The notes: a model not told the origin generated them from the letters alone. Shown: positions 33,893 through 62,955, numbered from the stretch's first letter. The stretch: 64,000 nt of DNA from a virus (IMGVR_UViG_3300010397_000041:1-64000); one strand, 5' to 3'. Made by a program: numbers and translations.

Positions 33893-33905
33893 TCTGCGTC
33901 GGAAA

Positions 33906-46480: not shown

Positions 46481-48466
46481 CTATGCGGCGGCGGGCGGGT
46501 CCAGCGCGTCGAGCTGCCGCTGAATCTCGGCCCGCATCGCCGGGTCGGCGCCGGGGGCGTCACGCATCGCGCGCAGCACGCCCTTCTTCACGTCCGCCTC
46601 CGCTGTCTTTGCGAGCTCGGCGGGCGACACCGGAGGCTGCACTCGCGTCCTGGCAGGGCCGCCCGGCCTCGGCGTCTCGTGCAGCGTGGCCTTCACCTCT
46701 GCCAGCCCCTGCGCGAGGGGCTCCATGGCCTTCGTGATGGCGTCGCCGAACTGCGCCGCGAGGTCGGCACTCACCCGTGCGGTGATCGCCTTCGTCAGCG
46801 TATCGGTGTCGGTGGTGCTGGCCGCCTTCGCCATGTCAGGCTCGGCGGGGGTCTCGGTGCCGGCCTCGCCGGCGTGGGTCGCGGCCGCGGCCGCGGCCGC
46901 CTTCTTCAGGCGCTTCCGCATCTTCTTCGCGGCCTTTTCGGCGGCAGCCTTCATCAGGTCGGGGGTGCCGGCCTTCTCGGCGCCGTCCTCGGTCGGCTCG
47001 GACAGCGCGCCGGCGTCAGGCTCGGTCATGTGCTTGATCTCCATGGCTTCGTTCCTCATGAACCAGGTCACGAGCTCCGCCGCCTGCGCGAGCAGCGCGA
47101 TGTCCGCCACCTCGCCGAGCTCGCCGAGGAACAGGCCCATCGCCTCGGAGCGGATCAGGCACGCCAGGCCCTGGATGACGGCCTTCGCGGCCGCGATGTC
47201 GTCCATCTCGGACGCGGCCGCGGCGTTGTCGGTGAGCTGCAGCCCGCCTTCGTCGCCGTCGTCGGCCTTGACCACGTCGGGCGCCGTAGCCTTCTCCTTC
47301 GGCTTGGTGGAGCCGGGCCAGTCGGCGGGCAGCAGGTCCGTCGCGTCGAGGGCCTTTGCGCGATCGGTGATGTGCTTCTTCGCGGCCGCCGGGTCCTTCG
47401 CACGGCCGAACGCCTGGATCGCGTCGTTGAGCTGGGCCCGGTTCTGGATCGGGAACCCGCCCGACGGCATCGCCTCGCCCGCGGCGGCCGCGTCCTCGCG
47501 CTCGCCGGCGGTGAACTTCCGCTTCTCGAGCTCGGTGGCGACCGCCTTGATCAGCGTGTCGAAGTCGGGCTCGACGGCCTTGCTCGAGGACTTCGCGCTG
47601 CCGGTGTCGTCGGCGTCCTCGCTGTCGGGCTTGCCGTCCCCGTCGTCGTCCTCATCGTCCCGGTTGTGGACACCGTCGCCGTCAGGGTCGGAGCCGCCCT
47701 GGCCGCCGTCCTCCGATTGGAAGGGCTTGGCCTTCCGGCCACCGAACTTGCCGGCCTTCTTCCGCTTCGCCAGCGTCTCCGGATCCGCGGCGTCCGGGTC
47801 GTCAGGGTTGGCGACGACGGAGGGGGCGGTGAGCTGGTCGACCAGGGCGGCGGTCATCGGCAGCACCCGACCATCCGAGGTCTTGAGCAGCATCTGTGGG
47901 CCGGGCGCGACAGGGACCGCATCGACCGCCTTCTCGACCTCGTCGCCTTCGACGAACTCGGGGCTGTCGACGAGGTCGAGCGAGCCGGTCGCCTTGTTCA
48001 GCGCGGCCATGCGAAACAGCGCCGACGGCAGCGAGGGCCGGTCGACGGCGCTGACTTCGATCACGTCGCCCCGGCAAACCTTCCCGTTGGGCGCGTCGGT
48101 GGCCTTGGCAAGGCCGTAGTTCGCGACACCGACCGAGAATCCGGTCAGGATTCCGTGCTCGATCTTCGCTTCGGCGACCGGGTCGACGATCTTCGCCCGC
48201 ATGTGCCACGAGTGGTCGTCGGTCTCCCAGACCTCGACCGCCTTACCAATCGGCCGTTGGGCCGAGTGGCCCTCGCGGACATTCCCACCTGACGGCCCGT
48301 GCATGTACGCCGGGATCGCGGCCTTGAGCCACGTCGGGTCCATGCGCTGGCCGTCGGAGTCCAGGTCCGGGCCGGTGAACTTGCCCTCTACCCAGAGGAT
48401 GCCGGCTTCGTCGCGTTCCTTGCGCAGGAACGGGGTGTAGATGTCCAGACGCTCAGCAACGGGCAT
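46481..48466 (-). CDS. Prohead protease fused to scaffold (with AMPSGGFPI domain)
   Basis: DSDGQ; NVREGH; IGKA; GILTGFSVG; IEVSAVDRPS; AMPSGGFPIQN...LNDAIQAFGRA; helical scaffold C-terminus. Confidence 0.85.
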   Translation of the reverse strand: MPVAERLDIYTPFLRKERDEAGILWVEGKFTGPDLDSDGQRMDPTWLKAAIPAYMHGPSGGNVREGHSAQRPIGKAVEVWETDDHSWHMRAKIVDPVAEAKIEHGILTGFSVGVANYGLAKATDAPNGKVCRGDVIEVSAVDRPSLPSALFRMAALNKATGSLDLVDSPEFVEGDEVEKAVDAVPVAPGPQMLLKTSDGRVLPMTAALVDQLTAPSVVANPDDPDAADPETLAKRKKAGKFGGRKAKPFQSEDGGQGGSDPDGDGVHNRDDEDDDGDGKPDSEDADDTGSAKSSSKAVEPDFDTLIKAVATELEKRKFTAGEREDAAAAGEAMPSGGFPIQNRAQLNDAIQAFGRAKDPAAAKKHITDRAKALDATDLLPADWPGSTKPKEKATAPDVVKADDGDEGGLQLTDNAAAASEMDDIAAAKAVIQGLACLIRSEAMGLFLGELGEVADIALLAQAAELVTWFMRNEAMEIKHMTEPDAGALSEPTEDGAEKAGTPDLMKAAAEKAAKKMRKRLKKAAAAAAATHAGEAGTETPAEPDMAKAASTTDTDTLTKAITARVSADLAAQFGDAITKAMEPLAQGLAEVKATLHETPRPGGPARTRVQPPVSPAELAKTAEADVKKGVLRAMRDAPGADPAMRAEIQRQLDALDPPAAA

Positions 48467-48524: not shown

Positions 48525-48854
48525 ATGAGCGACGACAGCCCGCAGTACGAGCCACTCGCGGCCGGCGGCGCAGTGAAAGCGACTGCCTACCTGCCCGACT
48601 TCGATCGGTGTGAACTCGCCATCGCCAACCCGCAGATCAGTGACCGGGGTGTGGTCGATGGCGGCCGGCTCGTAGAGGTCTCGCTACCGAAAGACATCGC
48701 GGCGAAGCTGACGCCCGGCCTGCTGCATGGGCTGTCGGTTGGGCAGACCGCTGATCGGGTCATCCCGCATTGGAACCGCACATCGATGCCGATCGACGCG
48801 CCAGCGCTCGGGATGCTGACAGATACCGACGAGCCGGAGACGGATCAGCCGTAG
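48525..48854 (+). CDS. Small protein carrying permuted prohead-protease motifs
   Basis: GGAG RBS; GGRLVEVSL and AKLTPGLLHGLSVG. Confidence 0.6.
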   Translation: MSDDSPQYEPLAAGGAVKATAYLPDFDRCELAIANPQISDRGVVDGGRLVEVSLPKDIAAKLTPGLLHGLSVGQTADRVIPHWNRTSMPIDAPALGMLTDTDEPETDQP

Positions 48855-49111
48855 AGCATCCCGAGTAGCGCCGGATACTCCCCGCCGGTCGGTGCAGGTT
48901 CGGTCTCGGCCGGGCCCAGCGCGCGCTCGACCGCGTCGACGAGCCGGCCGAGCTCCCGCACCCGGCTGAGCGTCGGCCGGTCGGTCAGCGCGGTGGCCGC
49001 GACGGTCAGCAGCGCGTCCGCCAGCGGGACGGCCAGCGGGCTGGGGTCCCGCTGCAGTGCGATGCGGGCCTCGTGGACGCGGGCGCCGAGATCGTCAGGA
49101 TCCGCCCGCAT
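48845..49111 (-). CDS. Hypothetical helical protein
   Basis: GAGGAG RBS; high GC3. Confidence 0.55.
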   Translation of the reverse strand: MRADPDDLGARVHEARIALQRDPSPLAVPLADALLTVAATALTDRPTLSRVRELGRLVDAVERALGPAETEPAPTGGEYPALLGMLYG

Positions 49112-49535
49112 CGGCGCTCTCCTCGGACTCGGGGGCGTCGAGGCGCATCTGCTTGTCGCGCGCTGCGATCTCCCAGCGGGAGAAGGCGGTATAAACGTCG
49201 CGCTCGTCCTTCCACCCGTCCGATGGGAAGACCATCGCCGGAATCGACGGGTCCCTGCAGAGCACAGCGGCATAGACCCGGTGCTGGCCGTCTATGCCGA
49301 CCATAGAGCCGCTTTTCCGGACTCCGACGATCACCCGCTTGGACTGACGGTCGGCCTCGGACAGTTTCATCAGCGCAGCGACCTTGTCAGGGTCGAGTGG
49401 GCGCTGGCTGTGGACCCGGTCGAACATGATCAGCTGAGGGTCCAGGTAGACCGGCGACAGCTCGTCGTCGTCGAGGCCCAGGTCGGCGGCGGTGTACGTC
49501 GTCGGGTGGTTGTGTTCGCCGTCCTGGTCAGCCAT
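49095..49535 (-). CDS. ParB/Srx N-terminal-like DGQHR domain protein
   Basis: SQRPLDPDKV...IDGQHRVYAA. Confidence 0.75.
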   Translation of the reverse strand: MADQDGEHNHPTTYTAADLGLDDDELSPVYLDPQLIMFDRVHSQRPLDPDKVAALMKLSEADRQSKRVIVGVRKSGSMVGIDGQHRVYAAVLCRDPSIPAMVFPSDGWKDERDVYTAFSRWEIAARDKQMRLDAPESEESADAGGS

Positions 49536-49908
49536 CGGCGGGCACCGGGTCGCCGAGGAACGTCACCGTGTTGCCGGCCCTGACGGACCGCTGGTCCGCT
49601 TCGGGGATGTCCAGCGGTGGCATGTCCAGCGCAGCGCGCGCCTCGTTGACCGTCATCCGTCCGGTTCCGACCTCGGCCGCGAGTCGGCGGTCCTCGAACT
49701 CGTGCCAGGCACGCCACTGGGCGTCCGACATGGGGACGAGCGAGTAGGCGATCTGGTTCTGATCGTCCGGGTTCGGCAGGGTGACGATCAGGTCGACGGT
49801 GACAGCCGTGCGGTTGGGCCACGCGATAGTGAGAGTCACCTCGCCGGGGGCGACGGCTATCCCGGTTGGCCGAACCGGCGAGACGCTGATCTCAGGCAGG
49901 TCAGACAC
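49528..49908 (-). CDS. Small protein with portal C-terminal (crown)-like segment
   Basis: GGAGG RBS; TVNEARAALDMPPLDIPEAD. Confidence 0.7.
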   Translation of the reverse strand: MSDLPEISVSPVRPTGIAVAPGEVTLTIAWPNRTAVTVDLIVTLPNPDDQNQIAYSLVPMSDAQWRAWHEFEDRRLAAEVGTGRMTVNEARAALDMPPLDIPEADQRSVRAGNTVTFLGDPVPADG

Positions 49909-50242
49909 GGGGACCTCCGAAGCCGGGGCCGTTGCGCAGCCTCTGCCGTTGGATCTCTTGCCACAGCCGCTGGCCGTCGATGTGAACCGGTGTGCCGTCG
50001 GGGAGGGAACCGATCGGGGCGCGCCGCTGGATCGCGTCGACCTTGGCGTGCAGCGCGGCGAGGGCCTGCTCGTGGGCGTCGTGGCGAGCGTGCAGCTCGT
50101 CGCGATGCCGGGCGAGGTGTACACGCATCCGCCAGACGGCGAGGGCGCCGGCGGGGGCCGCCCAGATCGCCGAGGCGATCAGGTTCGACCAGATGCCGCC
50201 AGCCGGCCACGCGAAGAACACGTCGAGAAGATGCACAGGCAT
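49901..50242 (-). CDS. Membrane protein with tape-measure C-terminus-like motif
   Basis: GAGGAG RBS; N-terminal TM; VHIDGQRLWQEIQRQRLRN. Confidence 0.65.
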   Translation of the reverse strand: MPVHLLDVFFAWPAGGIWSNLIASAIWAAPAGALAVWRMRVHLARHRDELHARHDAHEQALAALHAKVDAIQRRAPIGSLPDGTPVHIDGQRLWQEIQRQRLRNGPGFGGPRV

Positions 50243-50252
50243 CTCCTCACGG

Positions 50253-50528
50253 TCAGAACCTGGCGCCAGGCGGGGCGTCGCTCTCAAGGTCGAACACGGG
50301 TGGGGATCCGGTCGGGGTCATGCCCTTGCTGGCCAGCCAGAGGAACACGGTCGGCTCGTCGTCGAGGGCGAGCGGAACGCGCGGCCCGGTGGCGGTATAT
50401 CGGACGAGGACGCCGCGGGCAGCTTCACGGCGAGCGCGGATGGTGACGGGCTCCGGCCAGTCGACAGGGCCGCCGTCCCAGCGCAGCGTGCGATGCCGCC
50501 CGTACAACTCCCCCGCCATCTCCCACAT
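50253..50528 (-). CDS. Small protein downstream of MuF peptidase (possible immunity/partner)
   Basis: 4 bp after MuF stop. Confidence 0.55.
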   Translation of the reverse strand: MWEMAGELYGRHRTLRWDGGPVDWPEPVTIRARREAARGVLVRYTATGPRVPLALDDEPTVFLWLASKGMTPTGSPPVFDLESDAPPGARF

Positions 50529-50532
50529 GCCT

Positions 50533-52344
50533 TTACAATACCGCCCAAAGGCCGAGAATGAAATACAGATAATCCTCGTCCTGCGCGAGCATCATCGGGT
50601 CATCTGATGATCCGATAAGCATTTCCGAGCCCATCGACGCGACTTCCCAACCGTCCGAGGGCGAGTCGCTGTAAACCCTGCCGATGTAGGGGTCTTTGAA
50701 CTCGTCGGGGCGGGACATTTCGTCCGCGTCGTAGGGTTCAGGTGACAGCGCCCGCATGGACCTTTTACGGCCCAACCGGGTCCACGTTCGGACACCATCG
50801 ACGAGGTGGCTGTTCCGGTCGGCCCAGAACACCCATTGGGCGCCGACGATACCTGGCACGGCCCACTCCATCATGTGGGCCAGCTCGTGAACCGCGATCA
50901 CGTCGCTGTCCATCATCGCAACGACGATCTTAGGGGTTTTCCCTTTCGCGCCAGCCGAGAAGTAGGCCCGGCCGCGCTGCTTCATTGCCGCGCGGAGCGG
51001 TGCCTTGTCGGAGGCGCGCCGCACCCAGTCTGACGGAAAATGGCGCAGCATCCGGGAGATCCGTCGCTGTGCCGCTTCGGCCGACGACTCGGTGAAGGCG
51101 ATCTGGCCGCCCATGGGCCGCAGGTCACCGAGGACTTGAAGCCGGACGTCGGCCAGACGGCCGGAGATCTGGTCACGGCGCTGCTCGGCGGCTTGCAGGT
51201 CGTCCAACGCCCGCTCGTATCGCTGGCGCAGGTCGTCGACGTGCGCCTGATCGGGCGTCGCCTCAGCGGCGGCCTGCTCGAGCTGGTCGCCGAGACGTTC
51301 GGCGTCGGCTTCCAGTGCCGCGATCCGCTGGGCCAGCGCTTCCTGTTCGGCGAGCTGCACCGCCAGTCTCTGCCGCGCTTCCTGTTCGATCTGCTTTCCG
51401 ACGTCGCGCAGGACGTTGACCTTCGCGATCGACGCTTGGTCGGGTAGCCCCTGGGTGTCGGCGTCGTACACCGGTTTGCCGTCTTGGAGGATCGTGCCGA
51501 TCCGCTCCGGGTCGCCGATCTCGCTTCGGGCGTTGTTCACAGCGTCCTGGAGCCGCCCTGTCGACCTGTGGGGGGTCGGCGACGCGGCTGGGCGGGGGCT
51601 GTCGACGGCGTCGGGTGGCATGCTGGCATGCCGCGGCGTCGGCTCGTCCGCCAGGCCCGTCTCGTCGTCGGCCGTCTCGTCGTCGGACTCTGCGCCGGCG
51701 TCGTCCTCGGCGATGTCGTCGTCTTCGAGATCGTCGGCGGCGTCCAACTCGCCGCCGGCTTCGCCGTCCAGGCCGAAGTCGGACAGGCTGTAGCCCATCG
51801 AGGTCAGATCCGCCGGGGTCAGGTAATCCGCCGTTACTGCGCACCGGCATTTCGGATGGGTCGGCGGCCAGCCATTAGGTGGTTCATCGTTCACGGGGAT
51901 CGGCCCGGCGTCCTCGTTCTCCTGGCAAAGAGCACACACGCGAAGATCGTTGGAGCTGAGCACCGAGGCGGCGGGGAATCCTGCATCCCGGTAGGACGCG
52001 AGACTGGCCGCCGTCATCGCCCGGGCCATCTCAGTGGTGGCAACCATCTCCGCCCACGCCGGGTCGTCCAAAACTCCTTGCAGCGTGCGGGCAAGCTCGT
52101 CAGACGAAGCGCCGCGGGCAACAGCGTCCGACACAGCGCCTGACAGCTTGTCGAGCCGGTTGTCTTCGATCGAGGCGAGCAGGCTCCCGCGTTGCGCGGC
52201 CCGGTCGGACCAGGAGGCGTCGCGGCCTACGGCCTGGGCGATGAGCTGGTCCTGCTGGCGGGCGAGACGTGCGGCTGGCTCGTGGCCCGGCGTCCAGCTG
52301 TCCCAGTCGATCGAGGACTCGACGATGGGCGCGGCCACGGTCAC
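50533..52344 (-). CDS. MuF-like head morphogenesis protein with C-terminal HExxH metallopeptidase
   Basis: ATTEMARA; VCALCQEN; PPTHPKCRC; HELAH...YIGRVY...EVASMGSE. Confidence 0.85.
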   Translation of the reverse strand: MTVAAPIVESSIDWDSWTPGHEPAARLARQQDQLIAQAVGRDASWSDRAAQRGSLLASIEDNRLDKLSGAVSDAVARGASSDELARTLQGVLDDPAWAEMVATTEMARAMTAASLASYRDAGFPAASVLSSNDLRVCALCQENEDAGPIPVNDEPPNGWPPTHPKCRCAVTADYLTPADLTSMGYSLSDFGLDGEAGGELDAADDLEDDDIAEDDAGAESDDETADDETGLADEPTPRHASMPPDAVDSPRPAASPTPHRSTGRLQDAVNNARSEIGDPERIGTILQDGKPVYDADTQGLPDQASIAKVNVLRDVGKQIEQEARQRLAVQLAEQEALAQRIAALEADAERLGDQLEQAAAEATPDQAHVDDLRQRYERALDDLQAAEQRRDQISGRLADVRLQVLGDLRPMGGQIAFTESSAEAAQRRISRMLRHFPSDWVRRASDKAPLRAAMKQRGRAYFSAGAKGKTPKIVVAMMDSDVIAVHELAHMMEWAVPGIVGAQWVFWADRNSHLVDGVRTWTRLGRKRSMRALSPEPYDADEMSRPDEFKDPYIGRVYSDSPSDGWEVASMGSEMLIGSSDDPMMLAQDEDYLYFILGLWAVL

Positions 52345-52599
52345 CTACCCGGGCAGCAGCTCGCGGGACGACACCCGCACCTCGCCGGTGCTGTGGTCCT
52401 TCTCCAGCCAGACGCCGACCTTGCGGCCCTCAAAGTCGGCCGGAGCATCGTCGTCCTCGACGACCGTCGTTCTGCTGGCATGGCCGCCATCGGCCGGGCC
52501 GTGCCAGCGCGGGCCGGCTTCGATGAAGCGGAAGCCGGCGGGGAGTTGCAGGTCCTGGTCGAGGATCACTTCGGCTACGTCGACGAGGTACCGGGTCAC
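52345..52599 (-). CDS. Hypothetical protein
   Basis: GAGGTG RBS; abuts MuF start. Confidence 0.6.
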   Translation of the reverse strand: MTRYLVDVAEVILDQDLQLPAGFRFIEAGPRWHGPADGGHASRTTVVEDDDAPADFEGRKVGVWLEKDHSTGEVRVSSRELLPG

Positions 52600-52659
52600 A
52601 GGTCACCTCAGTGGTGCGTGCTGGCGCCGGGACCGCCTCAAGGACCGGCGCCAGCACGG

Positions 52660-52926
52660 TCAGTCGGCCGGCGGCGTCCACCCCAGTTGGATCAGCGCTT
52701 CACGGGTCGTATCGGGGAGGACCACCCGGGCCTCGTCGACCTGGACGTCGACCGCGCCGAGCAGGACCAGATCGACCGTCAGCGTGGGCAGCTGCTGCGG
52801 GTCTGGAGCCGCCAGGGTGAAACCGACAGCCGCATCGGCGAGGTCGATGTCGTCGTCGACAACCAGCCGGCCGCCGGGTTTGCCCGGTCCGGGCAGGTGG
52901 ATGCGGGCGCGATGCTGGTTGGCCAC
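52660..52926 (-). CDS. Hypothetical phage protein
   Basis: AGGAGG RBS; LIQLGWTPP end. Confidence 0.65.
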   Translation of the reverse strand: MANQHRARIHLPGPGKPGGRLVVDDDIDLADAAVGFTLAAPDPQQLPTLTVDLVLLGAVDVQVDEARVVLPDTTREALIQLGWTPPAD

Positions 52927-52936
52927 GGCCGCCTCC

Positions 52937-53470
52937 TTAGAAGATGCTGCGGCCGCCGCGTGGCGCGCCGGGCGCTTCTCTCATCAGCTGGTCGAGGCCG
53001 CGTCGCTCCCGGTGCCGTTTCCGGTGCTGCCGATCGTCCTGGCCGCCCGGCGTCGCTGCCTTGACCGCCGGTGCCGGCTGGTGGTGCAGCCTCGGCGGAT
53101 CGAGCGGCACAGGCTTCGGCGCGGCTTTGGCCTGCGCTCGCCGCACTGCGTCGTCGGCCGCCAGTTCCCCGGCCGCCCAGCCGGCCCGGTAGCAGTCCCT
53201 CAGAGCCGGGCCCAACGCGCCTTTGCGGGCGTGTTGGTCGAGGATCAGCCGGATCTCGTGCCGCAGGATCTGCGGGTCGGTGGTCGTCCCGCCGGGCCAG
53301 CGGGCCGCGAGGACGCGGGCGACGGCTTCCGGGTCAATAAGTCGGCTGGCAGCCTGGGATACCCGCTCGGCGTAGCGCGGGTTCAGCGCGTCGTGCGCCT
53401 GGAAGCCGATCCACTGCGCCCGCTCCCTGGTCAGGTCGCGGGCTTGCGGCTCGCCCCCCGCCACCACCAC
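52937..53470 (-). CDS. MuF N-terminal-like segment overlapping the portal end (possible frameshift fusion)
   Basis: LGPALRDCYRAGWAAGELAA; 137-nt overlap with portal across a G6 run. Confidence 0.55.
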   Translation of the reverse strand: MVVAGGEPQARDLTRERAQWIGFQAHDALNPRYAERVSQAASRLIDPEAVARVLAARWPGGTTTDPQILRHEIRLILDQHARKGALGPALRDCYRAGWAAGELAADDAVRRAQAKAAPKPVPLDPPRLHHQPAPAVKAATPGGQDDRQHRKRHRERRGLDQLMREAPGAPRGGRSIF

Positions 53471-55643
53471 CAGCCTTCGCCAGCTCGGCTACGGCCGCTT
53501 TGGCTCTCAGGGCGGCGAGCCCCGGCTGGTTGTCCTGCACCATGACGTTCAGTTCGCGGGCCAGCTGCTCCGGCACTGCAGTGAACGTGAACGCGCGGGA
53601 CCTGCCACCCGACTTCTCCAACCGGGTTGCGTAGCGGGCGAACGCACCCAGCTCGGCCGCGACCGCCTTCGCCTCGTCCTTCGGACGGTGCGGAAAGCCA
53701 TCCTCGGCCAGCCCGTAGGCCAGACAGCCCGGCTCGCCGTCCGTGGGGACGAACCGGTGCTGGATGTCCTGGGCGTCGCCGGCGGTGCCGTCGATGCCCT
53801 GCGCCTGGCGGGCCGCCTCGCCAGCCTCCTGGAAGGCCTGCGTGGTGGCGGTCTTGGCTACGGCCGTCTTCTGGCCCGAGCCGTCCGAGGCGGACGCCGG
53901 CTTGGGCGGCGCAGCTTCCTCGCCGGCGTCGGAATCGTCGCCGGAGTCGTCGTCGGATTCTTCGGACTCGTCGGCCTGCTTCCCGCGGGCCGGTCGCTGC
54001 GCGGGCGCGGCTTGGAAACCCGCGACGGCGGCCTGCGAGCCGGCCCTCGCCGCGGCCCCCTGCGCCTCCTGGATCGCCTTCTGGCCGTCGAGGAACAGGA
54101 CGCCGCGGCCGTAGGCGACGAACGGCTCGTCGGCTTCTTCGATCGGCAGCGGCGGCAGGCCCATCTCGTCGCGGGCCTCGTTCAGCGTCCGCCGGCCGCC
54201 TTTGACCTGCGTGTCCAGCACCGCATCGGCCGATGCCTGGTCTTCTTCCTCGAGGCCGAGGAATTTGAACTCGACGGCGGGGTGGACACCGAGGTAGCGG
54301 TGGTTGATGTCGTTGAAGATCGCGGCGAGCCATTTGCACCACGGGTGGATCAGCTTGCGGTACTGGATGTTCTCCTGGCCCTCGTGGTAGCTGCTGCCCC
54401 CCAGGCCGCCGGACTCGATGAAGCCGATCTCCGCCGGGGTGACACCGAACGCGGCGGCGATCAGCTTGACCAGGAACAGGTCGTACTCGGGCTTGTACTT
54501 CTGCGCGTTGTCCGTGAAGGTTGCCAGCTTGCCGCCGGGCAGGCCGATCTGGATCCGCTGCCGTTCGGAAAGGTTCCCCGACAGCGTGTTGTTGATCTCG
54601 GCGCGCCAGCGGCGGACCTCGGCCGGGGTCATACCCTTCGCCGACTCAGGGACCTCGAGGAACGCCATCGGCAGCGACGAGGCGTCGAACTCCTGGGTCA
54701 GCCAGTCGGCGCGTTTCAACCACAGGTTGATCTCGATCAAGGCTTTTTCGACGGGGCTGATGCCGTAGGGCGAGATGGTACGGACCTCGCGGCGGCAGTA
54801 AATCAGCTCGTCGGCGGTCAGCCCGCCGTCGATCGTGCCGTCCTTCCCGATCGCCGCGGTGAACTCGCCACGAGGGAAGCCGTACATGATCTGCTGGAAC
54901 GCGGGATCGGGCGGCAACGGCCGCCGGCCGCGGTTGTCCAGAAGCGGCTTCACGAACTCGCCTGCGATGATCTCGCAGGCCAGGTCGTTGCCGTACGACC
55001 AGCGCGGATTGATCGCCAGCGCGTCGAGGACCAACGACTCTTCGAGCGCCATCCCGAGCCAGTCGACGAAGTTGTAGCCGCCGAACCGGTCGGGCCGCTT
55101 CCAGAACGCACGCGCCTTCGCGATGTCCGGTGCGAGCTTCTCCCGCAGCGCCGACTTCGCCTGGACCTTGCGGATCCCGTCGAGTTCCATCGCGGTGGTG
55201 ACGGCATCCTCGGACACGGTGGTCGCCCAGTCGAGCCCGCAGATCTCCGATTTGATCAGGGAGATGCAGTAGCGGACGATCCCGACGTCGGCTGCCTTCC
55301 GCAGCGTCTCGAACGGCACATGCCGCCGTTCACCGCCGGGGACGTTCCAGCCGACCGGATATTCCCAAACCCTGGGGTCCGTGCGGCCGTCGGGGCGAAG
55401 CGGGTCGATCGCGTACGGCCCGGGCGGGGTGAGCGGGCCGAACGGAGCCGTGTAAGGAAGTTCGCGGGGCAGCGGCTCGTAGGCGCCGATCGCCACACCC
55501 GACTGCACCGCGCCCGCCGCGGCCGCGGCCGCCTGCGCGGACATGTCCCGGGTCTGACCGCCGGCGGCACGGGCCGCCGCCGCGTACGACGCCTTGTCGA
55601 GCTGGCGGCGCTTACGGTTGCGGGCACGGCTGCGAGACGACAC
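53334..55643 (-). CDS. Portal protein
   Basis: PFETLR; ESLVLDA; YGISPVE; AAFGVTPAEIG; TLNEARDEMGLPP. Confidence 0.92.
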   Translation of the reverse strand: MSSRSRARNRKRRQLDKASYAAAARAAGGQTRDMSAQAAAAAAGAVQSGVAIGAYEPLPRELPYTAPFGPLTPPGPYAIDPLRPDGRTDPRVWEYPVGWNVPGGERRHVPFETLRKAADVGIVRYCISLIKSEICGLDWATTVSEDAVTTAMELDGIRKVQAKSALREKLAPDIAKARAFWKRPDRFGGYNFVDWLGMALEESLVLDALAINPRWSYGNDLACEIIAGEFVKPLLDNRGRRPLPPDPAFQQIMYGFPRGEFTAAIGKDGTIDGGLTADELIYCRREVRTISPYGISPVEKALIEINLWLKRADWLTQEFDASSLPMAFLEVPESAKGMTPAEVRRWRAEINNTLSGNLSERQRIQIGLPGGKLATFTDNAQKYKPEYDLFLVKLIAAAFGVTPAEIGFIESGGLGGSSYHEGQENIQYRKLIHPWCKWLAAIFNDINHRYLGVHPAVEFKFLGLEEEDQASADAVLDTQVKGGRRTLNEARDEMGLPPLPIEEADEPFVAYGRGVLFLDGQKAIQEAQGAAARAGSQAAVAGFQAAPAQRPARGKQADESEESDDDSGDDSDAGEEAAPPKPASASDGSGQKTAVAKTATTQAFQEAGEAARQAQGIDGTAGDAQDIQHRFVPTDGEPGCLAYGLAEDGFPHRPKDEAKAVAAELGAFARYATRLEKSGGRSRAFTFTAVPEQLARELNVMVQDNQPGLAALRAKAAVAELAKAGGGGGGRAASPRPDQGAGAVDRLPGARRAEPALRRAGIPGCQPTY

Positions 55644-55665
55644 GGGGCCACCTCGCGCGCCTTGG

Positions 55666-55863
55666 TTAGTCGTGCCGCGGACAGCCGCCCATGACCACCA
55701 GGCCGTAGGTCGGATGCCAGTGGCAGCCGCATCCCAGGCCGCGGCGAAGCCACACGTGGGCGATGAACAGGAAGCGCCGCGGGCCGGGCCTGTACCCGGC
55801 CTCACGCCAGAGGGGACGCATGAACCGGACGTAGCCGATCAAAGTCACAGGGTCCGCCTCCAA
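55666..55863 (-). CDS. Small Cys/His-containing protein
   Basis: CGCHWH...GCPRHD; lies between terminase and portal. Confidence 0.45.
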   Translation of the reverse strand: MEADPVTLIGYVRFMRPLWREAGYRPGPRRFLFIAHVWLRRGLGCGCHWHPTYGLVVMGGCPRHD

Positions 55864-57479
55864 CCCTGCGCGGATTCGCCCCCGCCGAACCAGGCCGACA
55901 TGTCGACCGCCGCAGGCTCCCGCGCTTCGGGCGGCGGCTGCTGGTGCGCGTTGGCGTCGGATTCGGCGATCAGCTGGTCCATGAAGCTGGCGAAATCACC
56001 CCGCAGATCCACGAAGGCGAGGATGAGCGCGTCGGCGTTGTCGGGCGACCGGCCGAGCCGCTCCCGTTGATCGTCCTTCGGCTCGACCTGGATCTGCCCG
56101 CGGCTGTTCGGATGCCACTTCGCGGTCAGCAGCTGATTGCAGGCGTCGTCAGGATTCTCCGCGCCCGACTGCCACACACCGTCAGCGTTGTAGACGGCCG
56201 GGGAGAGGTCCCACGCCTGCTGCTCGGACTGGAGCCGGCCAACCTCCCACCAGATCTCCGACCGCAGGTTCGCGAACCGCTTCGAGTCGGTTGCCTGCTG
56301 GCCGACGTTCACCCCGGTCACCGTCGCCGTGTGGGTGCCGTCGCCGCGGAGCTCCTTCAGCCGGTCGGCTACGCCGGCGCCGATACCGATGCTGTCGACG
56401 TTGACGGCCGTCGCCCCGGTGATCTCAATCGCTTTGAGGACCAGGCGGACGACGGACATGGTGTCGTCGTCGCGGTCCCGCCACTCCCGGCCGACCATCC
56501 GGCCGCGCCGCTCCCGGATCACAGTCTCATCGCCGCCGCCACCGACGTCGACACCGAGGACAACCGGGGTGAGCTCGTCCGGGGTGTACTCGCGGTCGGT
56601 GGGCTGCCGGCACTTCGCCAGGTCAGAGGAGCGCACGACCTGATCGGAGGCGTCCAGCGGGAACTCGCCGAGAACCTTCTCGAACCAGAGCGGAGAGCCC
56701 TCACCCCAGTCGGCGCGCTTCTCCTCCACCCACGTCTTCGAGACCAGCGCGCGGCGCAGCAGATCCGGGACCCGTTCGCCGGTCAGGTTCGGCGTGTCGA
56801 ACGCGGAGATGGTGATGACGTGCCAGCCCGAACCGGGACGGCAGACCTGCGCGAATTCGCTGGAAGGGTCGGCAGGGTTGCCGATCGCCAACAGGGCGCA
56901 GCCCTCGTTGGTCATGAGCGCGTCGGCGGCGGTCCACAGCCAGCCGGGGATCCCGCTCGCCTCGTCCAACGCAACCAGAACGCCGTCGGGGGCGTGGATG
57001 CCCTGAAAGGCGGTGCGGCCCTGCTCCGTGTCGGGCGGTTTCCGGCCGAAGCCGATCAGCTCTTTGCCGAGCTTCCACTCCGTGGTGAGCACCCGGCCGG
57101 GTAGGGGCGTGCCACGTTCCGCGGCGACCGCCGCGGCCTGGCCGATGTAGCGCCACAGGATCGCCTGGACCTGGGCAGCCGACGGCGCGGTCGTGACCGC
57201 GAACGCCTGACCGGGAGTCCGGGTCGCAAGCCAGTGGGCCACGACCCGAGAGGCAGTGTGGGACTTTCCGCAGCCGTGTGCCGACTTGACCGCGACCTTA
57301 CGGTGCCTGGTCAGCGCGGTGACGATCTCAACCTGCTTGGACCACAGATGCTCGCCGAGCACGTCCGACACCCACAGCGCGGGGTCGGTGCGGTACTGCT
57401 GCTGGCGGGCCTCGCTGTCGAGCCGGTCGAGAGCGGCGAGCAGGTTGGATGACAGCCGGTCGGGCAGCGCTACCACCAT
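55845..57479 (-). CDS. terL: Terminase large subunit
   Basis: SAHGCGKS Walker A; VALDEASG Walker B; IGNP; LGVDVGGGGD; NVDSIGIG; SPDNADA. Confidence 0.95.
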   Translation of the reverse strand: MVVALPDRLSSNLLAALDRLDSEARQQQYRTDPALWVSDVLGEHLWSKQVEIVTALTRHRKVAVKSAHGCGKSHTASRVVAHWLATRTPGQAFAVTTAPSAAQVQAILWRYIGQAAAVAAERGTPLPGRVLTTEWKLGKELIGFGRKPPDTEQGRTAFQGIHAPDGVLVALDEASGIPGWLWTAADALMTNEGCALLAIGNPADPSSEFAQVCRPGSGWHVITISAFDTPNLTGERVPDLLRRALVSKTWVEEKRADWGEGSPLWFEKVLGEFPLDASDQVVRSSDLAKCRQPTDREYTPDELTPVVLGVDVGGGGDETVIRERRGRMVGREWRDRDDDTMSVVRLVLKAIEITGATAVNVDSIGIGAGVADRLKELRGDGTHTATVTGVNVGQQATDSKRFANLRSEIWWEVGRLQSEQQAWDLSPAVYNADGVWQSGAENPDDACNQLLTAKWHPNSRGQIQVEPKDDQRERLGRSPDNADALILAFVDLRGDFASFMDQLIAESDANAHQQPPPEAREPAAVDMSAWFGGGESAQGWRRTL

Positions 57480-57545
57480 CGGTCACGCTCCGTCGACCAC
57501 AACCGCCATCCGTGATCTTAATCCAGGGGTTATGGCTACGAAGCG

Positions 57546-58121
57546 TCACGCCGCTGTGAGATGCCGGCGCGCGGACTCGATGAACGCCTGCCGCTGCTCC
57601 GGCGACATGCCGATCTGCGGGTCGTTGAGCACGGCACGCAGGAAATCCTCGAGGAGGCTCGTTTCCCGCTCGGCCATCTGGACTCGCCGTTCCTCGATGC
57701 CGGCGGCGAGCGCCAGCCGGGCGAAGTTCGCCGCCCGGTCGCGCTCCTCGGACTCCAGCTGCGCGAGGCCGCGGATGTACTCGCCCTGCGCGCCACCCTC
57801 GCCGAACGCGACACCGACGGTCGCCTTCTCCAGTCCCAGCTCTTCGACCTTCTCCTGCAGCTCGGCGGCGTAGACGTTGGCGCGGCGTGCGGCCTGGGAC
57901 AGCAGACGCAGGAGCGTCTCCCCGGGGTCGACTTTTTCGTCGGTGATACCCCAGTCGGCGAGTTCGGCGCGGACAGCGGCTTTGTTGGCGACTTGCGGCG
58001 CTGCGGCGCCGTGTTTCCAGCAGACGGTGGCACCTTTGACGGCCCACTGGGTGCAGCGCTTCTTCGTGGATTTCGCGATCGCAATGCATTTGCGTCGTTG
58101 CACTGCCATGGGGTTGTCCAA
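57546..58121 (-). CDS. terS: Terminase small subunit (HGGxSTG-like Zn finger + helical domain)
   Basis: C...RC...VCWKHGAAAPQV; AGIEERRV; directly upstream of terL. Confidence 0.75.
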   Translation of the reverse strand: MDNPMAVQRRKCIAIAKSTKKRCTQWAVKGATVCWKHGAAAPQVANKAAVRAELADWGITDEKVDPGETLLRLLSQAARRANVYAAELQEKVEELGLEKATVGVAFGEGGAQGEYIRGLAQLESEERDRAANFARLALAAGIEERRVQMAERETSLLEDFLRAVLNDPQIGMSPEQRQAFIESARRHLTAA

Positions 58122-58179
58122 CGTTCTGTGGGTCGGTCGGTCGGCTGGCTGCCGGGAGAGGTCGAAGTTCCCGGCGGTG

Positions 58180-58341
58180 CTACTGGCAGGCGGCGCGGTG
58201 GGCGTCGATCTGTCGGCGTACCGCGGCCGTGTCGAGCTCGGCCGACAGTGCCACTTGCGTGCCGCGCGGCGGGCCCCAGGTCACTGGGATGTTCACAGTG
58301 ACGGTGTGGCCGCAGTCGAGATGCAGGTCGAGGTCGAGCAC
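58180..58341 (-). CDS. 53-aa hypothetical protein (below ORF-track cutoff)
   Basis: MLDLDLHLDCGHTVTVNIP...IDAHRAACQ; high GC3. Confidence 0.4.
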   Translation of the reverse strand: MLDLDLHLDCGHTVTVNIPVTWGPPRGTQVALSAELDTAAVRRQIDAHRAACQ

Positions 58342-58372
58342 GGCGGGCAGAGCGACCCTGCGGGATGCCTGC

Positions 58373-58642
58373 CTACTCGACGTCGTTGGCGGCGCGGGGG
58401 CCGTCGGCCAGCCGCTTGTACTTCTCGGCGGTCGTGTGGCCGTCCCAGTCGTTCGGCTTGACCTTCAGCGAGTCCGGGAACAGTTCGACGTCGGCTTGGG
58501 CTATGTGCCAGCACATCTGCCCACCCGGTCCGTGGATGCAGATCACCGGCCAGTCGGGTTCGTCCGGATCGACGGCCCAGTGGGCGTCGTACAGCCGGGC
58601 GAGATGGGCGACGAGGTAGGCACGCTCGCGGTAAATGTCCAC
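58373..58642 (-). CDS. WDGH-motif phage protein
   Basis: YRERAYLVA...GQMCWH...WDGHT. Confidence 0.75.
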   Translation of the reverse strand: MDIYRERAYLVAHLARLYDAHWAVDPDEPDWPVICIHGPGGQMCWHIAQADVELFPDSLKVKPNDWDGHTTAEKYKRLADGPRAANDVE

Positions 58643-58645
58643 GGG

Positions 58646-58861
58646 TCAGTCCAGATCGTGGGAGGCGGCGCTGGGGGCGAGATGCGCGAGCGGCGCCAGG
58701 TCGGCGAAGCGCCACAGCGACGGGATGCGCTGGTGGCCGCGTACTACAGGTTTGATGCCCTCTCGGGCCAGCAGCTTGTGTGTAGCGCGGCAGCGGTTCG
58801 CCGTCGACCGGCCGAGCCAGGCTGTGATCTCCCAGATATCAACAAGCCCGGTAGGCCGCAT
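58646..58861 (-). CDS. Small HTH-like protein
   Basis: LVDIWEITAWLG...LWRFADL; GGAGG RBS. Confidence 0.5.
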   Translation of the reverse strand: MRPTGLVDIWEITAWLGRSTANRCRATHKLLAREGIKPVVRGHQRIPSLWRFADLAPLAHLAPSAASHDLD

Positions 58862-58904
58862 GGCGACCTCCGGGCAATCTCGTGGCTCCCTGCCATTATG
58901 CGCC

Positions 58905-59150
58905 CTACGCTGTCGACTGCAAGCATGCGGTTGATCGCGGCGCTTCGCGGCGGCAGCGGGAGCACAGGTGCCGGGCCCGTCGTCGGACCATGACCGCGCA
59001 GTCGTCGAGTTGCGCGCCGCAAACGGTGACCACGGGGCCGATAGGAATCGTGTTCCAGCCGGCCGGTTCGGGTGGCGGGTCGGCGATCAGGGTGAGGTGT
59101 AGCTGCTGCTCGAGGCGGCCGCGGAGCACGGCCCGAAGCTGGTCAGGCAT
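58905..59150 (-). CDS. Zn-binding small protein (module B)
   Basis: QLHLT...GPVVTVCG...CSRCRRE. Confidence 0.6.
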   Translation of the reverse strand: MPDQLRAVLRGRLEQQLHLTLIADPPPEPAGWNTIPIGPVVTVCGAQLDDCAVMVRRRARHLCSRCRREAPRSTACLQSTA

Positions 59151-59412
59151 CGTCGCCGAGTAGTGCGGCCAGCTTCCCGTGGGCCACCGAGGTTTCCAAC
59201 GGTACGACCGCCCTGCCCGCGAGGATCGCCTTGCCGAGGGAAACCGCAAACTCGCGGGCTGCGACCTCGACAGCGAGGAGCTGGCCGAGCCATCCGTACT
59301 CCGGGCCGATGGCGTGGTCGGACAGCTCCTGGAGCCATTCCGCGCCTGGCCGTCGGTGGTCGCGTTCTCCGGGCATGCCGCACAGCTCGTACCAGTCCCC
59401 GCTGTCACCCAT
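59143..59412 (-). CDS. Small protein (module A)
   Basis: HAIGPEYGWLGQLLAVEVAARE. Confidence 0.6.
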   Translation of the reverse strand: MGDSGDWYELCGMPGERDHRRPGAEWLQELSDHAIGPEYGWLGQLLAVEVAAREFAVSLGKAILAGRAVVPLETSVAHGKLAALLGDDA

Positions 59413-60430
59413 CGAGGGGGCCTGCCCTCTTCCCGGCGCTCGGCTGTGCAGCACGGAGCATCGCCAGGAACTCGCCGCGGGTCTCGGCGCCGTGCGTGTT
59501 CCGGCCGTGCAGCCACAGCGCGTTCTCGACTCGCCGCTCGTAGAGCAGGTCGACGGCGCCCGGCAGGCCAAGCTCTGCGGCGTACGACGCGAGGTTGGGG
59601 GGATGTTCGTACTCCCAGCCGCACAGCGGGCAGATCGACACGGTCGCGCCTGGCCGGTGCCGGTGGATCTGACCCGGCATGCCGGCGGTCTCACGGCGGC
59701 AGCGGGAGCATGCGCCCTTGGATCGGCGGCGGGTCAACACCGCGGAGGGGATCCCGATGCCGCAGGCGGTGCGGACCGGGCCGACCGCGCGGTCCCGGTT
59801 GGCGATCAGGATGTCCGAGGGCCAGCGAGGATTGGGATCGTCCATGTTGGCCGGGGCTTTCGCGGCCAGGTGGGCTGACAGCCAGGTGAGGTGGATCTGT
59901 CGGCGACGGTCGGCCGCGTACGGCCGGCAGACCGCGCGCAGGACGAGGAGTTCGCTCACCCGTTTCTCCCGGTGCCCCTGCAGCGGTCGACGCAGTCCGA
60001 CGACACATAGCAGCCGCCGTCGAGGTCGAAGCTGGACGGCGGGGCGATCCAGCAGGGGTGACGGCGGACACGCAGGATCGAAGTCGGGTGCGTCTGAGGA
60101 TTGCGCGGGCTGGGCGTGCGCCTCGCCGAGCAGTACGGCGAGCTTCTCGTGGGCCTCGGCCAGCCGTTCGTGCAGCTTCTCGCCGTCAGCCCCAGCGTGG
60201 GTGTCGATCTCCCAGGCGGACCAGTACGGGGAGACCGTCTCATCGTCCACTAGGGGAGCGACCGCGGCGGCCAGCTCGCGTGCTGCGGCCTCGATGGCGA
60301 GCAGTCGGCCATAGGGCCCGTACTCGGCTCCAACGAGATGGTCTTCCGCGAAGTGCTCGACGTCGTCCTCGGCGAAGTGGGATCGGGGAAACCAGTCCCG
60401 GCAGAGCGCACACGACTCGCCCTTGACCAT
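59405..60430 (-). CDS. Fusion of module A + module B + CPLC domain
   Basis: HLVGAEYGPYGRLLAIEAAARE; QIHLT...GPVRTACG...CSRCRRE; CPLCGW. Confidence 0.6.
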   Translation of the reverse strand: MVKGESCALCRDWFPRSHFAEDDVEHFAEDHLVGAEYGPYGRLLAIEAAARELAAAVAPLVDDETVSPYWSAWEIDTHAGADGEKLHERLAEAHEKLAVLLGEAHAQPAQSSDAPDFDPACPPSPLLDRPAVQLRPRRRLLCVVGLRRPLQGHREKRVSELLVLRAVCRPYAADRRRQIHLTWLSAHLAAKAPANMDDPNPRWPSDILIANRDRAVGPVRTACGIGIPSAVLTRRRSKGACSRCRRETAGMPGQIHRHRPGATVSICPLCGWEYEHPPNLASYAAELGLPGAVDLLYERRVENALWLHGRNTHGAETRGEFLAMLRAAQPSAGKRAGPLDG

Positions 60431-60433
60431 CGC

Positions 60434-60850
60434 TCAATTCCCCGTTCGCAGACGCAGCCACCGGGCCCGGTAGTCCGGGTGGTGTTCCCAGATCTTCATG
60501 GCGGTCCGTACGTCCATGCAGGGGTAGGCGGCCCATTCGCAGCCACGGCAGCGGACCCAGATTTCGTCGTCGTCGTGGACAGCGCCCGGCCCGTGTGGAC
60601 GCAGGATCGTCGCGAGGGCCTCGGTGACCTCCACATCAAGCTGGGCGGGGGTACGGGCGGTCAGCTCGGCGAGACGGGCTTCGAGGAAGGCGGCAAGGTC
60701 GGCCTTCTGAGCGGCGAAGCGGACCGCACGGGCCCGGGGCTGCGGGTAGCAGGCGTGCCAGGTTGCGCCGCCTTCCCGTGCCGCCGCGGCGTCGGCGATA
60801 CGCACCAGCTCGTCGCAGCGGGCGACGATCGCGGCGCGAAGGTCAGGCAC
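60434..60850 (-). CDS. DUF6221-like phage protein
   Basis: DLAAFLEARLAE...CRGC...YPC...WEHHPDYRARW. Confidence 0.7.
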   Translation of the reverse strand: MPDLRAAIVARCDELVRIADAAAAREGGATWHACYPQPRARAVRFAAQKADLAAFLEARLAELTARTPAQLDVEVTEALATILRPHGPGAVHDDDEIWVRCRGCEWAAYPCMDVRTAMKIWEHHPDYRARWLRLRTGN

Positions 60851-61259
60851 GACGCCGCCCCTCGAACCCCGCGACCACCCGGGCAACGTTCGCGTCGATC
60901 ACGGCCCGCGTCTCGGCGACACGCGCCAGGTCCGGCGGTGGCACCTCGACGCCCAGCGCGGCGTGGATCTCCTGCCACAGGCCAGACTCCGTCAGGTCGA
61001 TGCCGACCTGTTCCCACGGTGTCGGGCCGACGAGCGCCGTCCAACGGGCGATGCGGAGCACCGCCGAGTCACAGCCCATCGACCACACCCCGTTGGCCGC
61101 CAGGTTTCGGGCCGCGGACAGGTCGTGCCACAGGCAGATCAGTTCGGTCCGGGCGGCTTCTTCCCAGCCGGATGGTTCGTCCGCGAGCTCGGCCAGCGCC
61201 CGGGCGGCGGAGGCGCGTGCCTCCCGCTGGGCGGCGGCCAGGCTGCCGGGCTCAGCCAT
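60843..61259 (-). CDS. Hypothetical protein
   Basis: GGAGG RBS; high GC3. Confidence 0.65.
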   Translation of the reverse strand: MAEPGSLAAAQREARASAARALAELADEPSGWEEAARTELICLWHDLSAARNLAANGVWSMGCDSAVLRIARWTALVGPTPWEQVGIDLTESGLWQEIHAALGVEVPPPDLARVAETRAVIDANVARVVAGFEGRRRA

Positions 61260-61265
61260 CGGTGT

Positions 61266-61605
61266 TCACCTCCAGCCGGGCCGCGGCATCGGCCATCGGC
61301 TCACACGGCCACGAATCCACCCAGGCGTATCGGGCGCGTCGGCGACCTGCTTGGCGATCGCGGTCAGGGCCTTCGCGATGCTGCGCGCCGTTCGGCGGTT
61401 GAATCCGGCGGCGATGCGCATGGCGGCGAGGACAGCGGCGTCGGGGAGGTCTTCGGCTTCGGCGGTGAGCACCGGGTCGACGCGGCCGAGGACCTCGAAG
61501 TCGCCTCGGCAGCCGCAGGGGGATGTCGGCGGCCTTCCGCACTCGGGCCGGGTTCCCGTCGGCGATCCAGGCGGCGAGCGGCGCGCCGAGCGTCGGAGTG
61601 TTCAC
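61266..61605 (-). pseudogene. Frameshifted small gene (extra C in C5 run)
   Basis: High-GC3 frame switches at 61518-61522. Confidence 0.5.
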
Positions 61606-61706
61606 CGCTGCCACCGGTCCCGCTCGAAGTAGACGCCGAGGGTGAAGCCGAGCAGACCGGAGGCGAGGGCGGCCAGCACGATGATCAGGATGGTGCTCGC
61701 GGTCAT
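61602..61706 (-). CDS. 34-aa single-TM protein
   Basis: MTASTILIIVLAALASGLLGFTLGVYFERDRWQR; coupled on both sides. Confidence 0.6.
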   Translation of the reverse strand: MTASTILIIVLAALASGLLGFTLGVYFERDRWQR

Positions 61707-62155
61707 GATGTTGACTCCGCTGCGAGCAGGAACCGCATCGCCTCGTCGCGGCGGAACCCTGCCTGCAGGTGCGCGGCGAGCGTCTCGTACCGGGCCCTCG
61801 CAACCGGGTCAGGAGGCAGGGCTGTCGGCCCGGTGACGACCGCCGTGGCTGACGGCAGCCAGTTGCACGTCAGGATCGGCACACCCCGGCCGGTAAGCGG
61901 ATGGGCCACCGTCTCGATAAATGCGGGCTTGTTCAAAGCATCGTCGTAAGTCCGAGGCGGCCGGACCGCGACGGCAAGCACCGTTTGCGCCGTCGACGAC
62001 ATGTAGATCCCGGCCGGTTCGCCACCCCAGTCCCGGACAATCGTTTCCAGGGCGTCGAACAGCCGGTCTGGTGCTGCGACCCTACTGACGTCGATTTGGC
62101 GGAGTTCGCCGGTCTCGCCGTCGGCCCAGTAGATGTGGGTCAGGTCGCCGGTCAT
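61703..62155 (-). CDS. Stand-alone major-capsid A-domain-like protein
   Basis: GGAGG RBS; EPAGIYMS...TGRGVPILTCNWLPSATAVV matches own MCP. Confidence 0.7.
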   Translation of the reverse strand: MTGDLTHIYWADGETGELRQIDVSRVAAPDRLFDALETIVRDWGGEPAGIYMSSTAQTVLAVAVRPPRTYDDALNKPAFIETVAHPLTGRGVPILTCNWLPSATAVVTGPTALPPDPVARARYETLAAHLQAGFRRDEAMRFLLAAESTS

Positions 62156-62955
62156 GAGGCCTCCGCGAGGCGCATCGTCAGCGCGTGCAGCTGGTCGTTG
62201 CCGAGGCGCCAGGCGTGGCGCATCGACCGGTCGTTGACCCGGCAGCTGACGGGTGGATTCCCCCAGCACCAGGGGCAGTCGGGGTTGCGCGCGTCTCCGC
62301 AGCCGCCGGTCTGGGTTTCGGGGTCTCCGAGGCAGAGCATGCGGCAGGACGGATAGTTGTGATCGTCGTGGCAGCCGTTCGGGCCGCCGGTGCCGCAGTA
62401 GATCAGCCCCGTATCCGGGGAGATCATCAGCGAGGGTTGTTTGCAGGCGTCGCACGTCGCCGCCGCGAGGCGCAGCGGGTAGGGCGCGCGGATCAACCCG
62501 AGTTCGATCTTTGTCCGACCGTGGTAGGAGCGAAGGTCGGCGAGGACTTCCTCGCCGAGGGGATGGTCTGCCGCGAGCTCAGGGAGTAGGGCCAATGCCC
62601 GGTCGAATGGGATCGCGAGGGCCCTGACCCGCCGGCCGTCGGGGGTTCGGCCGCGGTCGAGTGCCGGGTGGACGACCGGCAGCCAGTAGGTCACGGCCTT
62701 GCGTATCTCGCTCGCGAGGGACAGCGGGTAGTCGTCTGTCGGCGGCTGCGAATGCGGCTTCGACGACGAACCCGATACCTGCTCGACGACAGGTCGCTGC
62801 TCGTACTTCTCGGCGAGGCGGTCGAGGAGGCTTGGGTGCGCTTTCTTCCCGGGCGCCAGTTGCTCGGCCGGCGGGTCGTCTCGGTGTTTGAACTCGACGT
62901 GTTGTTCGTGGAGCAGTGCCCGAAGTTCTTCAGCGATCGCGTCGTTCGCTGTCAC
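62152..62955 (-). CDS. Cys-rich actinophage protein (possible transcription regulator)
   Basis: HPSLLDRL...SKPHSQPP...CDACKQPSL...YC; TACGGT -10 leaderless. Confidence 0.65.
   Translation of the reverse strand: MTANDAIAEELRALLHEQHVEFKHRDDPPAEQLAPGKKAHPSLLDRLAEKYEQRPVVEQVSGSSSKPHSQPPTDDYPLSLASEIRKAVTYWLPVVHPALDRGRTPDGRRVRALAIPFDRALALLPELAADHPLGEEVLADLRSYHGRTKIELGLIRAPYPLRLAAATCDACKQPSLMISPDTGLIYCGTGGPNGCHDDHNYPSCRMLCLGDPETQTGGCGDARNPDCPWCWGNPPVSCRVNDRSMRHAWRLGNDQLHALTMRLAEAS

Follow-up and report, generated by a model that had tools for sequence, protein, structure and literature searches.

Small genes with fragments of virion proteins

Here we describe four small open reading frames (ORFs) in IMGVR_UViG_3300010397_000041:1-64000, a 64,000-nucleotide stretch (the window) that makes up bases 1-64000 of the 92,425-bp record of a complete IMG/VR soil phage with direct terminal repeats. 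A sequence-only reading of the window had proposed that all four are separate genes with intact frames and their own ribosome-binding sites, that each mimics a segment of one of the phage's own virion proteins, and that together they form one system. Three of them lie on the minus strand: a portal-like ORF (49528-49908), a gene with a tail resembling that of the tape measure protein (TMP; 49901-50242), and an ORF resembling the major capsid protein (MCP; 61703-62155). The fourth, for which a protease segment had been proposed, lies on the plus strand (48525-48854). Because long spurious ORFs are abundant at the ~70% guanine-plus-cytosine (GC) content of this genome, genes were assigned by codon-position GC together with homology. 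All four ORFs are present, with intact frames and coding-like codon-position GC in each, and a ribosome-binding site (GGAGG) could be read for 49528-49908 and 61703-62155. The copied portal, TMP and MCP segments are confirmed by profile comparison, the protease segment is not established, and the genes do not behave as one system.

As a pairwise baseline, the small proteins were compared by BLASTP with the 125-protein proteome of the phage, in which 29 of the 125 proteins have a best non-self match with E < 0.1. Smith-Waterman shuffling gave p values of 1e-7 for the portal match, 0.007 for TMP, 0.015 for MCP and 0.37 for the protease, and PHROG and Pfam profiles supported the portal match only. 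The conclusion that these single-sequence tests suggested, namely that every match except the portal one was due to chance, was overturned by orthologue profiles. Related IMG/VR phages were found via the protease, the MCP and a small hydrophobic protein; they comprise G001 (L003), G002 (L004) and L033, together with the more distant L009 and G005 (L011), the phage studied here being G000. G001 and G002 were compared as whole records.

The portal-like gene

The portal-like ORF encodes 126 amino acids (aa), of which residues ~62-120 (nt 49549-49725) form a C-terminal module that matches residues 527-572 (nt 54090-54227) of the portal (53334-55805, minus strand), with the motif TLNEAR..LPPL..EEAD. 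The two are identical at 22 of 46 positions (E 2e-8 as a BLASTP pair, and E 5e-7 against the proteome, where the portal is the top non-self match); a portal-family hidden Markov model (HMM) finds the ORF at E 8e-9 and the PHROG portal profile phrog_2662 at E 3e-4. We regard the similarity as real and, by these sequence comparisons, confirmed. The matching segment aligns with HK97 portal residues ~370-397, and the ORF contains the TxNExR..PP crown segment of PF04860/HK97-type portals. In the AlphaFold2 (AF2) model, the predicted local distance difference test score (pLDDT) reaches 76-89 over residues 62-120 only, where one long and one short helix accompany a hairpin; this model is not independent evidence, because its shallow alignment included portal segments. 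In a VIA superposition, residues 62-120 fall on the C-terminal part of four portals, those of T5, DT57C, phiXacJX1 and HK97 (Z 6.4 to 2.4), the values of 6.4 and 6.2 corresponding to residues 335-380 of the T5 and DT57C portals. The portal crown faces the capsid interior (PMC10359639), and we infer a residue-level assignment in which the module is a segment next to or within that crown. Of the full clip-stem-wing-crown core, only residues ~62-120 find a match, with no Pfam portal match, and the protein cannot form a portal because it has no clip, stem or wing. Its N-terminal ~60 aa are unrelated to the portal and have a low-confidence fold. A prediction, run without controls, of a complex between the portal-like protein and portal residues 137-640 scored 0.00, a value that gives no verdict either way.

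The GTG start of the portal-like ORF, with GGAGG 5 nt upstream, overlaps the stop of the preceding gene, the one with the TMP-like tail, and by this overlap the two are translationally coupled. At the syntenic junction L003, L004 and L033 lack the ORF, their TMP-tail gene directly adjoining a ParB-like gene, and in the whole records of G001-G004 the portal module occurs inside the portal only, with no stand-alone copy. Two further stand-alone small ORFs do carry the module. One, P0007 (125 aa; 54% identical over 46 residues; E 1e-4), has it at the same position and is the only such match among 1.84 billion representative proteins. The other is a portal-crown-like mini-ORF of 55-85 aa in G005 (L011:11889-12056, plus strand) that starts 1 nt past the stop of a 1,457-aa TMP. 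All portal-invariant residues are retained in the three small ORFs, which are otherwise unrelated. The adjacency of portal-like and TMP sequences in both this phage and G005 is an unexplained coincidence. A frameshift fusion of the G005 mini-ORF to the TMP may also occur. Pattern scans of genome and metagenome contigs for the portal module or P0007 confirmed nothing, and the scan of viral contigs for the module returned a portal-MuF fusion only. In more distant relatives, portal and MuF domains are fused in a single ORF of 902-973 aa (L009:2992-5697, L005:4658-7579).

The gene with a tape-measure-like tail

The gene at 49901-50242 encodes a protein of 111-113 aa that has a His/Arg-rich helix besides its hydrophobic N-terminus (NLIAS motif), and whose tail (nt 49904-50002) aligns with the extreme C-terminal tail (nt 31496-31603) of the TMP (31493-33964, minus strand; phrog_28 E 5e-48, PF10145). 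As a single pair the two tails share 10 of 24 residues (proteome E 0.02, top non-self match). When the orthologues of the small protein were aligned and compared with aligned TMP C-termini, hhalign returned P 1.3e-5 over 32 columns, with a score of 37.6 against a maximum of 17.4 among 200 column shuffles, none of which reached it. In G001 the small protein finds its own TMP by BLASTP at E 6e-6, and in six-frame translations of three genomes the tail motif [VI]DG..[LVI][FWY]...Q[KR]Q (in its fuller form ending Q[KR]Q.LR) turns up in just five ORFs, the three TMPs and two of the small proteins, in every case inside the final 35 residues. We consider this similarity confirmed as well, as one that could be established only with orthologues.

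The tail is also the best conserved part of the gene: between this phage and G001, 11 of its 29 codons differ synonymously only and 3 by replacement, codon counts that show purifying selection on the tail. The small protein belongs to a wider family with the N-terminal hydrophobic NLIAS segment, present at 14 viral loci and mostly without the tail. The tail is complete in this phage and G001, partial in G002 and L033, where only an ..RRNG.GGL ending resembling the TMP's ..RRNPSNGL is retained, and absent in distant family members. The long helical ruler with a PhageMin_Tail/TMP core is missing from this 113-aa protein, which has no TMP PHROG or Pfam match at E 0.1.

The capsid-like gene

The capsid-like ORF (150 aa) begins at an ATGA start/stop overlap with a GGAGG site, and its residues ~22-109 (nt 61829-62092) match the C-terminal third of the putative MCP, at residues ~497-587 (nt 44803-45075). 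The putative MCP (649 aa; 44614-46563, minus strand) follows the protease gene and matches phrog_13692 (E 2.5e-78) and, below threshold, PF17236 SU10_MCP (E 0.003). Taken alone, the similarity is marginal: 10 of 30 positions are identical, the proteome E value of 0.07 ranks second behind an unrelated protein, and hhalign gives P 0.018 over 82 columns, a score that none of 250 shuffles reached. When the capsid-like protein was used directly as a query against G001 and G002, nothing was returned, which later proved to be a failure of sensitivity, since G001 does encode a homologue that had been overlooked (157 aa; L024:2341-2811, minus strand). Both genes have a comparable position, downstream of 62152-62955 or its homologue and upstream of the terminase gene; with none in G002, the gene is present in two of the three compared genomes.

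By tblastn the G001 protein finds the MCP of each of the three phages (E 2e-6 to 5e-4), and by hhalign it matches the MCP-family alignment (P 1.6e-7). A joint profile of the two capsid-like proteins, which are 27% identical to each other, matches the MCP alignment with P 9e-9 over 88 columns, and an HMM of the pair finds the three MCPs only (E 2e-6, 2e-6 and 2e-3; next 0.97). Through this homologue the capsid similarity is confirmed at the profile level. It covers only MCP residues ~497-587 of 649, not a complete HK97 fold with N-arm, E-loop, P and A domains. In the ESM Atlas, both by sequence features and by its own model, this phage's protein lies near clusters of short HK97-fold capsid proteins and encapsulins, with scores that serve as leads only. 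Foldseek matches of the protein are meaningless because its alignment-free AF2 model has a pLDDT of 49, and among solved structures none matches the MCP family by sequence.

The plus-strand gene

The 109-aa plus-strand ORF (48525-48854) is divergent from the gene for the prohead protease/scaffold-like protein (661 aa; 46481-48466, minus strand; phrog_80 head maturation protease E 1.4e-7, phrog_21715). Its orthologues in L003 and L004 are 98-100 aa long and have the same relative orientation, with a nonsynonymous-to-synonymous rate ratio (dN/dS) of ~0.3, and judging from these sequences it is a real conserved gene. The proposed protease segment fared less well. The two sequences share 8 of 14 residues at a proteome E of 1.3, ranked behind a terminase match at E 0.008 that did not replicate in G001 and was discarded as noise; with the terminase as the best match of this ORF, that E value illustrates the noise level of BLAST here. 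Profile-profile comparison found a 15-column core motif only (LLHGLSVG against ILTGFSVG; P 0.031, a score that 3 of 200 shuffles also attained), and neither the family HMM nor PHROG, Pfam or the ESM Atlas gave support for a protease-like segment. We therefore treat protease homology as not established by these comparisons. An origin of the ORF by inverted duplication of the protease N-terminus is no more than an idea, and neither global nor greedy alignment raised the score.

Distribution and genomic setting

The small genes are not co-inherited, their presence patterns differing among G001, G002, L033 and L009, and they occupy two variable regions ~12 kb apart, so that co-inheritance and co-location, as expected of a decoy system, are both lacking. 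Together with the uniqueness of the portal-like gene and the unestablished protease match, this argues against the single system that had been proposed. The accompanying suggestion that the copies are old and retained holds for some of them, namely the TMP-like tail with its 11:3 codon ratio and the capsid-like gene with its 27%-identical counterpart; none of the close relatives checked has the portal-like gene. Orthologues exist for the TMP tail and the plus-strand ORF, and none for the portal-like ORF in the same relatives. Profile matches are significant for the portal, the TMP tail and, jointly with G001, the MCP. Among 5.8 billion proteins the portal-like, capsid-like and plus-strand ORFs each found only themselves as near-length homologues; tblastn against cultured phages gave no match for the portal-like protein, the TMP-tail protein or the G001 capsid-like protein, and four distant matches only for the MCP.

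Three of the ORFs (49528-49908, 49901-50242 and 48525-48854) belong to a variable cluster between the MuF-like minor head protein gene (50533-52344, minus strand; PF04233 E 1.2e-10), which forms its upstream border, and the protease gene. Between L003 and L004, the protease has a synonymous distance (dS) of 0.006, against saturated values of ~0.7-1.0 for the ParB-like and TMP-tail genes; whole-gene dN/dS values are 0.3-0.7. In L009 the protease directly follows MuF. The ParB-like N-terminal-domain protein of this cluster (49095-49535, minus strand; phrog_1033 E 1.7e-7, GxDGQHR motif) is encoded within the head-assembly operon, and every close relative has kept it. In L033 the place of the plus-strand ORF, just upstream of the protease, is taken by the gene for a 423-aa protein (L033:5358-6629, plus strand); this protein has repeated Cys/His motifs and a C-terminal DHDH..GLLC..CN, and by eye is HNH/EndoVII-like.

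The second variable region, upstream of the large terminase gene (55845-57479, minus strand), shows segmental duplication. There, a 341-aa ORF (59405-60430, minus strand) has segments of 32-33 aa in common with 59143-59454 and 58905-59150 (50-55% identical, E 1e-5 to 1e-6), and parts of it match separate genes of ~100 and ~73 aa in G001 and G002; ORF 58905-59150 is itself 94% identical to a G002 gene. The interval 58905-60430 looks like a tandem duplication with fusion. A small minus-strand protein with a WDGH domain (58373-58642; PF25311 E 7e-7) is also encoded upstream of the terminase. The terminase is 35% identical over 69 aa to that of G001, compared with 53% in the more distant L009, which suggests, from sequence, a terminase replacement within the clade.

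The remainder of the minus-strand virion module includes the tail tube (35142-36359, minus strand) and a GH25 lysin. In the head-tail region a 732-aa ORF (38939-41137, minus strand) stands out by an unusually high GC content at every codon position and matches nothing in Pfam or PHROG. No integrase was seen among the scanned proteins.

Discussion

We consider the small genes to be independent accessory genes, each of which has captured a 3'-proximal fragment of a virion gene and reuses one surface of its parent, rather than parts of one system, an explanation to which we give about an even chance. It builds on three things that are shown, namely homology, frames that are intact and translationally coupled, and purifying selection on the TMP-like tail. 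All three copied fragments come from C-terminal parts of their parents and lie C-terminal to unrelated sequence in the small proteins; the sequence-only reading was right that several stand-alone genes carry diverged fragments fused to something unrelated, this being the N-terminal part. The fragments, namely a portal crown segment, ~90 residues of the C-terminal third of the MCP and the last ~32 residues of the TMP, would have been captured in variable insertion and recombination hot spots, the MuF-protease interval and the stretch of small genes that precedes the terminase gene; they differ in distribution and would differ in age, with at least some kept by selection. Each small protein would then present one interaction surface of its parent and bind the parent's partner as a competitor or adaptor, the hydrophobic TMP-tail protein engaging a TMP partner such as a tail-tip hub or membrane entry factor, and the portal-like and capsid-like proteins engaging partners in head assembly.

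Several points weigh against this explanation. Binding through a parental surface, and function itself, are argued from sequence and analogy; the portal-like and capsid-like genes are near-orphans, and because of this, selection on them is not measurable. The putative MCP is identified by its gene position, by a PHROG whose function is unknown and by a Pfam match below threshold. For the TMP-tail protein a membrane anchor is no more than suggested, its hydropathy maximum of 1.38 lying below the usual 1.6. A free capsid or portal fragment could, moreover, poison the phage's own assembly, contrary to simple competition.

The small genes could instead be neutral debris, by-products of recombination or partial duplication in the hot spots that happen to be open and coupled and have no function linked to the parent. 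We think this rather unlikely, if deserving of serious attention: the lineage restriction of the portal-like and capsid-like ORFs is what debris would look like, as are the mosaic clusters, the homing-endonuclease-like insert in L033, the other segmental duplications in the genome and the poorly conserved N-terminal halves with low-confidence folds. On the other hand, debris would hardly have its TMP-like tail as the best conserved part with an 11:3 synonymous excess, or a capsid-like gene that has persisted to 27% identity in two phages and still scores against the MCP profile; the retention of every portal-invariant residue in three unrelated small ORFs speaks against it too, as does codon-position GC that is coding-like in the homologous and the non-homologous parts alike. 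A second possibility, in our view a doubtful one, is that the copied pieces serve as short targeting or recognition signals instead of mimics, for example as a C-terminal peptide for a chaperone, protease or tail-tip component that also reads the parent; the small proteins would then be co-delivered or co-processed with the parent as virion cargo or ejection helpers. The confinement of the TMP-like motif to the last 35 residues of both protein types fits such a role, as do the place of the TMP-tail gene in the head-assembly operon and the close linkage of portal-like and TMP sequences, by coupling here and at 1 nt past the TMP stop in G005; against this, the capsid-like piece is ~90 residues of a folded domain and not a short peptide, and no processing sites or partners were identified.

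Least probable, and in our estimation very unlikely, is that the genes are coordinated decoys that titrate virion-protein sensors such as Avs or CapRel, or dominant-negative poisons of competing phages, both of which the sequence-only reading had put forward. A decoy role is conceivable because portal, MCP and TMP are among the proteins that STAND/Avs families sense (PMC13581612) and the SNIPE membrane nuclease associates with TMPs during injection (PMC13190303), and the small proteins do copy parts of these sensed classes. Yet the genes are neither co-inherited nor contiguous, and Avs proteins recognize whole folds over extended interfaces (PMC13581612) that pieces of 32-90 residues do not reproduce; a true trigger mimic would be expected to activate an abortive-infection sensor, not blunt it. 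Three of the genes also belong to the late head operon, whose timing is late for a countermeasure to early sensing, and no defense or anti-defense family was found nearby (PADLOC was not run). A literature search, which was not exhaustive, found no known decoys made from virion-protein fragments.

For the reuse of parental surfaces that we favor, the closest parallel comes from a satellite: SaPI1 CpmB shares a C-terminal peptide (helix-and-hook) with the phage 80alpha scaffold and occupies the same binding site (PMC5644958). The TMP-like tail resembles this arrangement in that it is C-terminal in both proteins; unlike CpmB's peptide, the shared portal and capsid parts are internal or C-proximal domain segments. 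CpmB, furthermore, belongs to a parasite of the phage, whereas the copies described here are in the phage's own genome, have portal, capsid and TMP as parents, and are known from sequence. HK97 gp15 is a membrane superinfection-exclusion protein that acts on TMP-dependent DNA entry. To our knowledge, neither it nor the Ltp-type exclusion proteins have been reported to copy TMP sequence. The Ltp-type superinfection-exclusion membrane proteins likewise act on TMP-dependent DNA entry (PMC3952083). With both, the TMP-tail protein has in common that it is a small, putatively membrane-associated phage protein linked to the TMP, here by sequence; unlike these prophage-expressed proteins, it is encoded in a late head operon of a phage with no integrase seen, and its anchoring would have to be deduced. 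With HK97-type portals (PF04860; HK97 gp3, T5 pb7) the portal-like protein has the TxNExR..PP..EAD crown segment in common, in sequence and predicted structure, and differs from them in having only ~60 of more than 350 core residues. The copied proteins also belong to the classes that trigger Avs, the same ones sensed by bacterial immune receptors (PMC13581612).

There is a lesson of method in these results, in that single-sequence comparison showed two of the three true similarities marginally or not at all, and it took orthologue profiles to make them clear. A bolder version of the capture explanation, which we judge improbable to about the degree of the targeting-signal idea, is that this lineage of soil phages repeatedly turns C-terminal virion pieces into interface mimics that control assembly or DNA entry or blunt Avs/SNIPE immunity, with the TMP-tail and portal-like genes as a functional pair; the pairing is hinted at because the same adjacency is found beside the true TMP in G005. 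If the copied surfaces are indeed what the small proteins work with, phages would encode their own counterpart of the molecular piracy proteins of satellites. The copied pieces, namely the TxNExR segment of the portal crown, the last ~30 residues of the TMP and the C-terminal segment of the MCP, are candidate interaction hot spots of their parents, and capture of such pieces would, if true, give phages a simple route by which to invent regulators, exclusion factors or anti-defense factors from their own structural genes.

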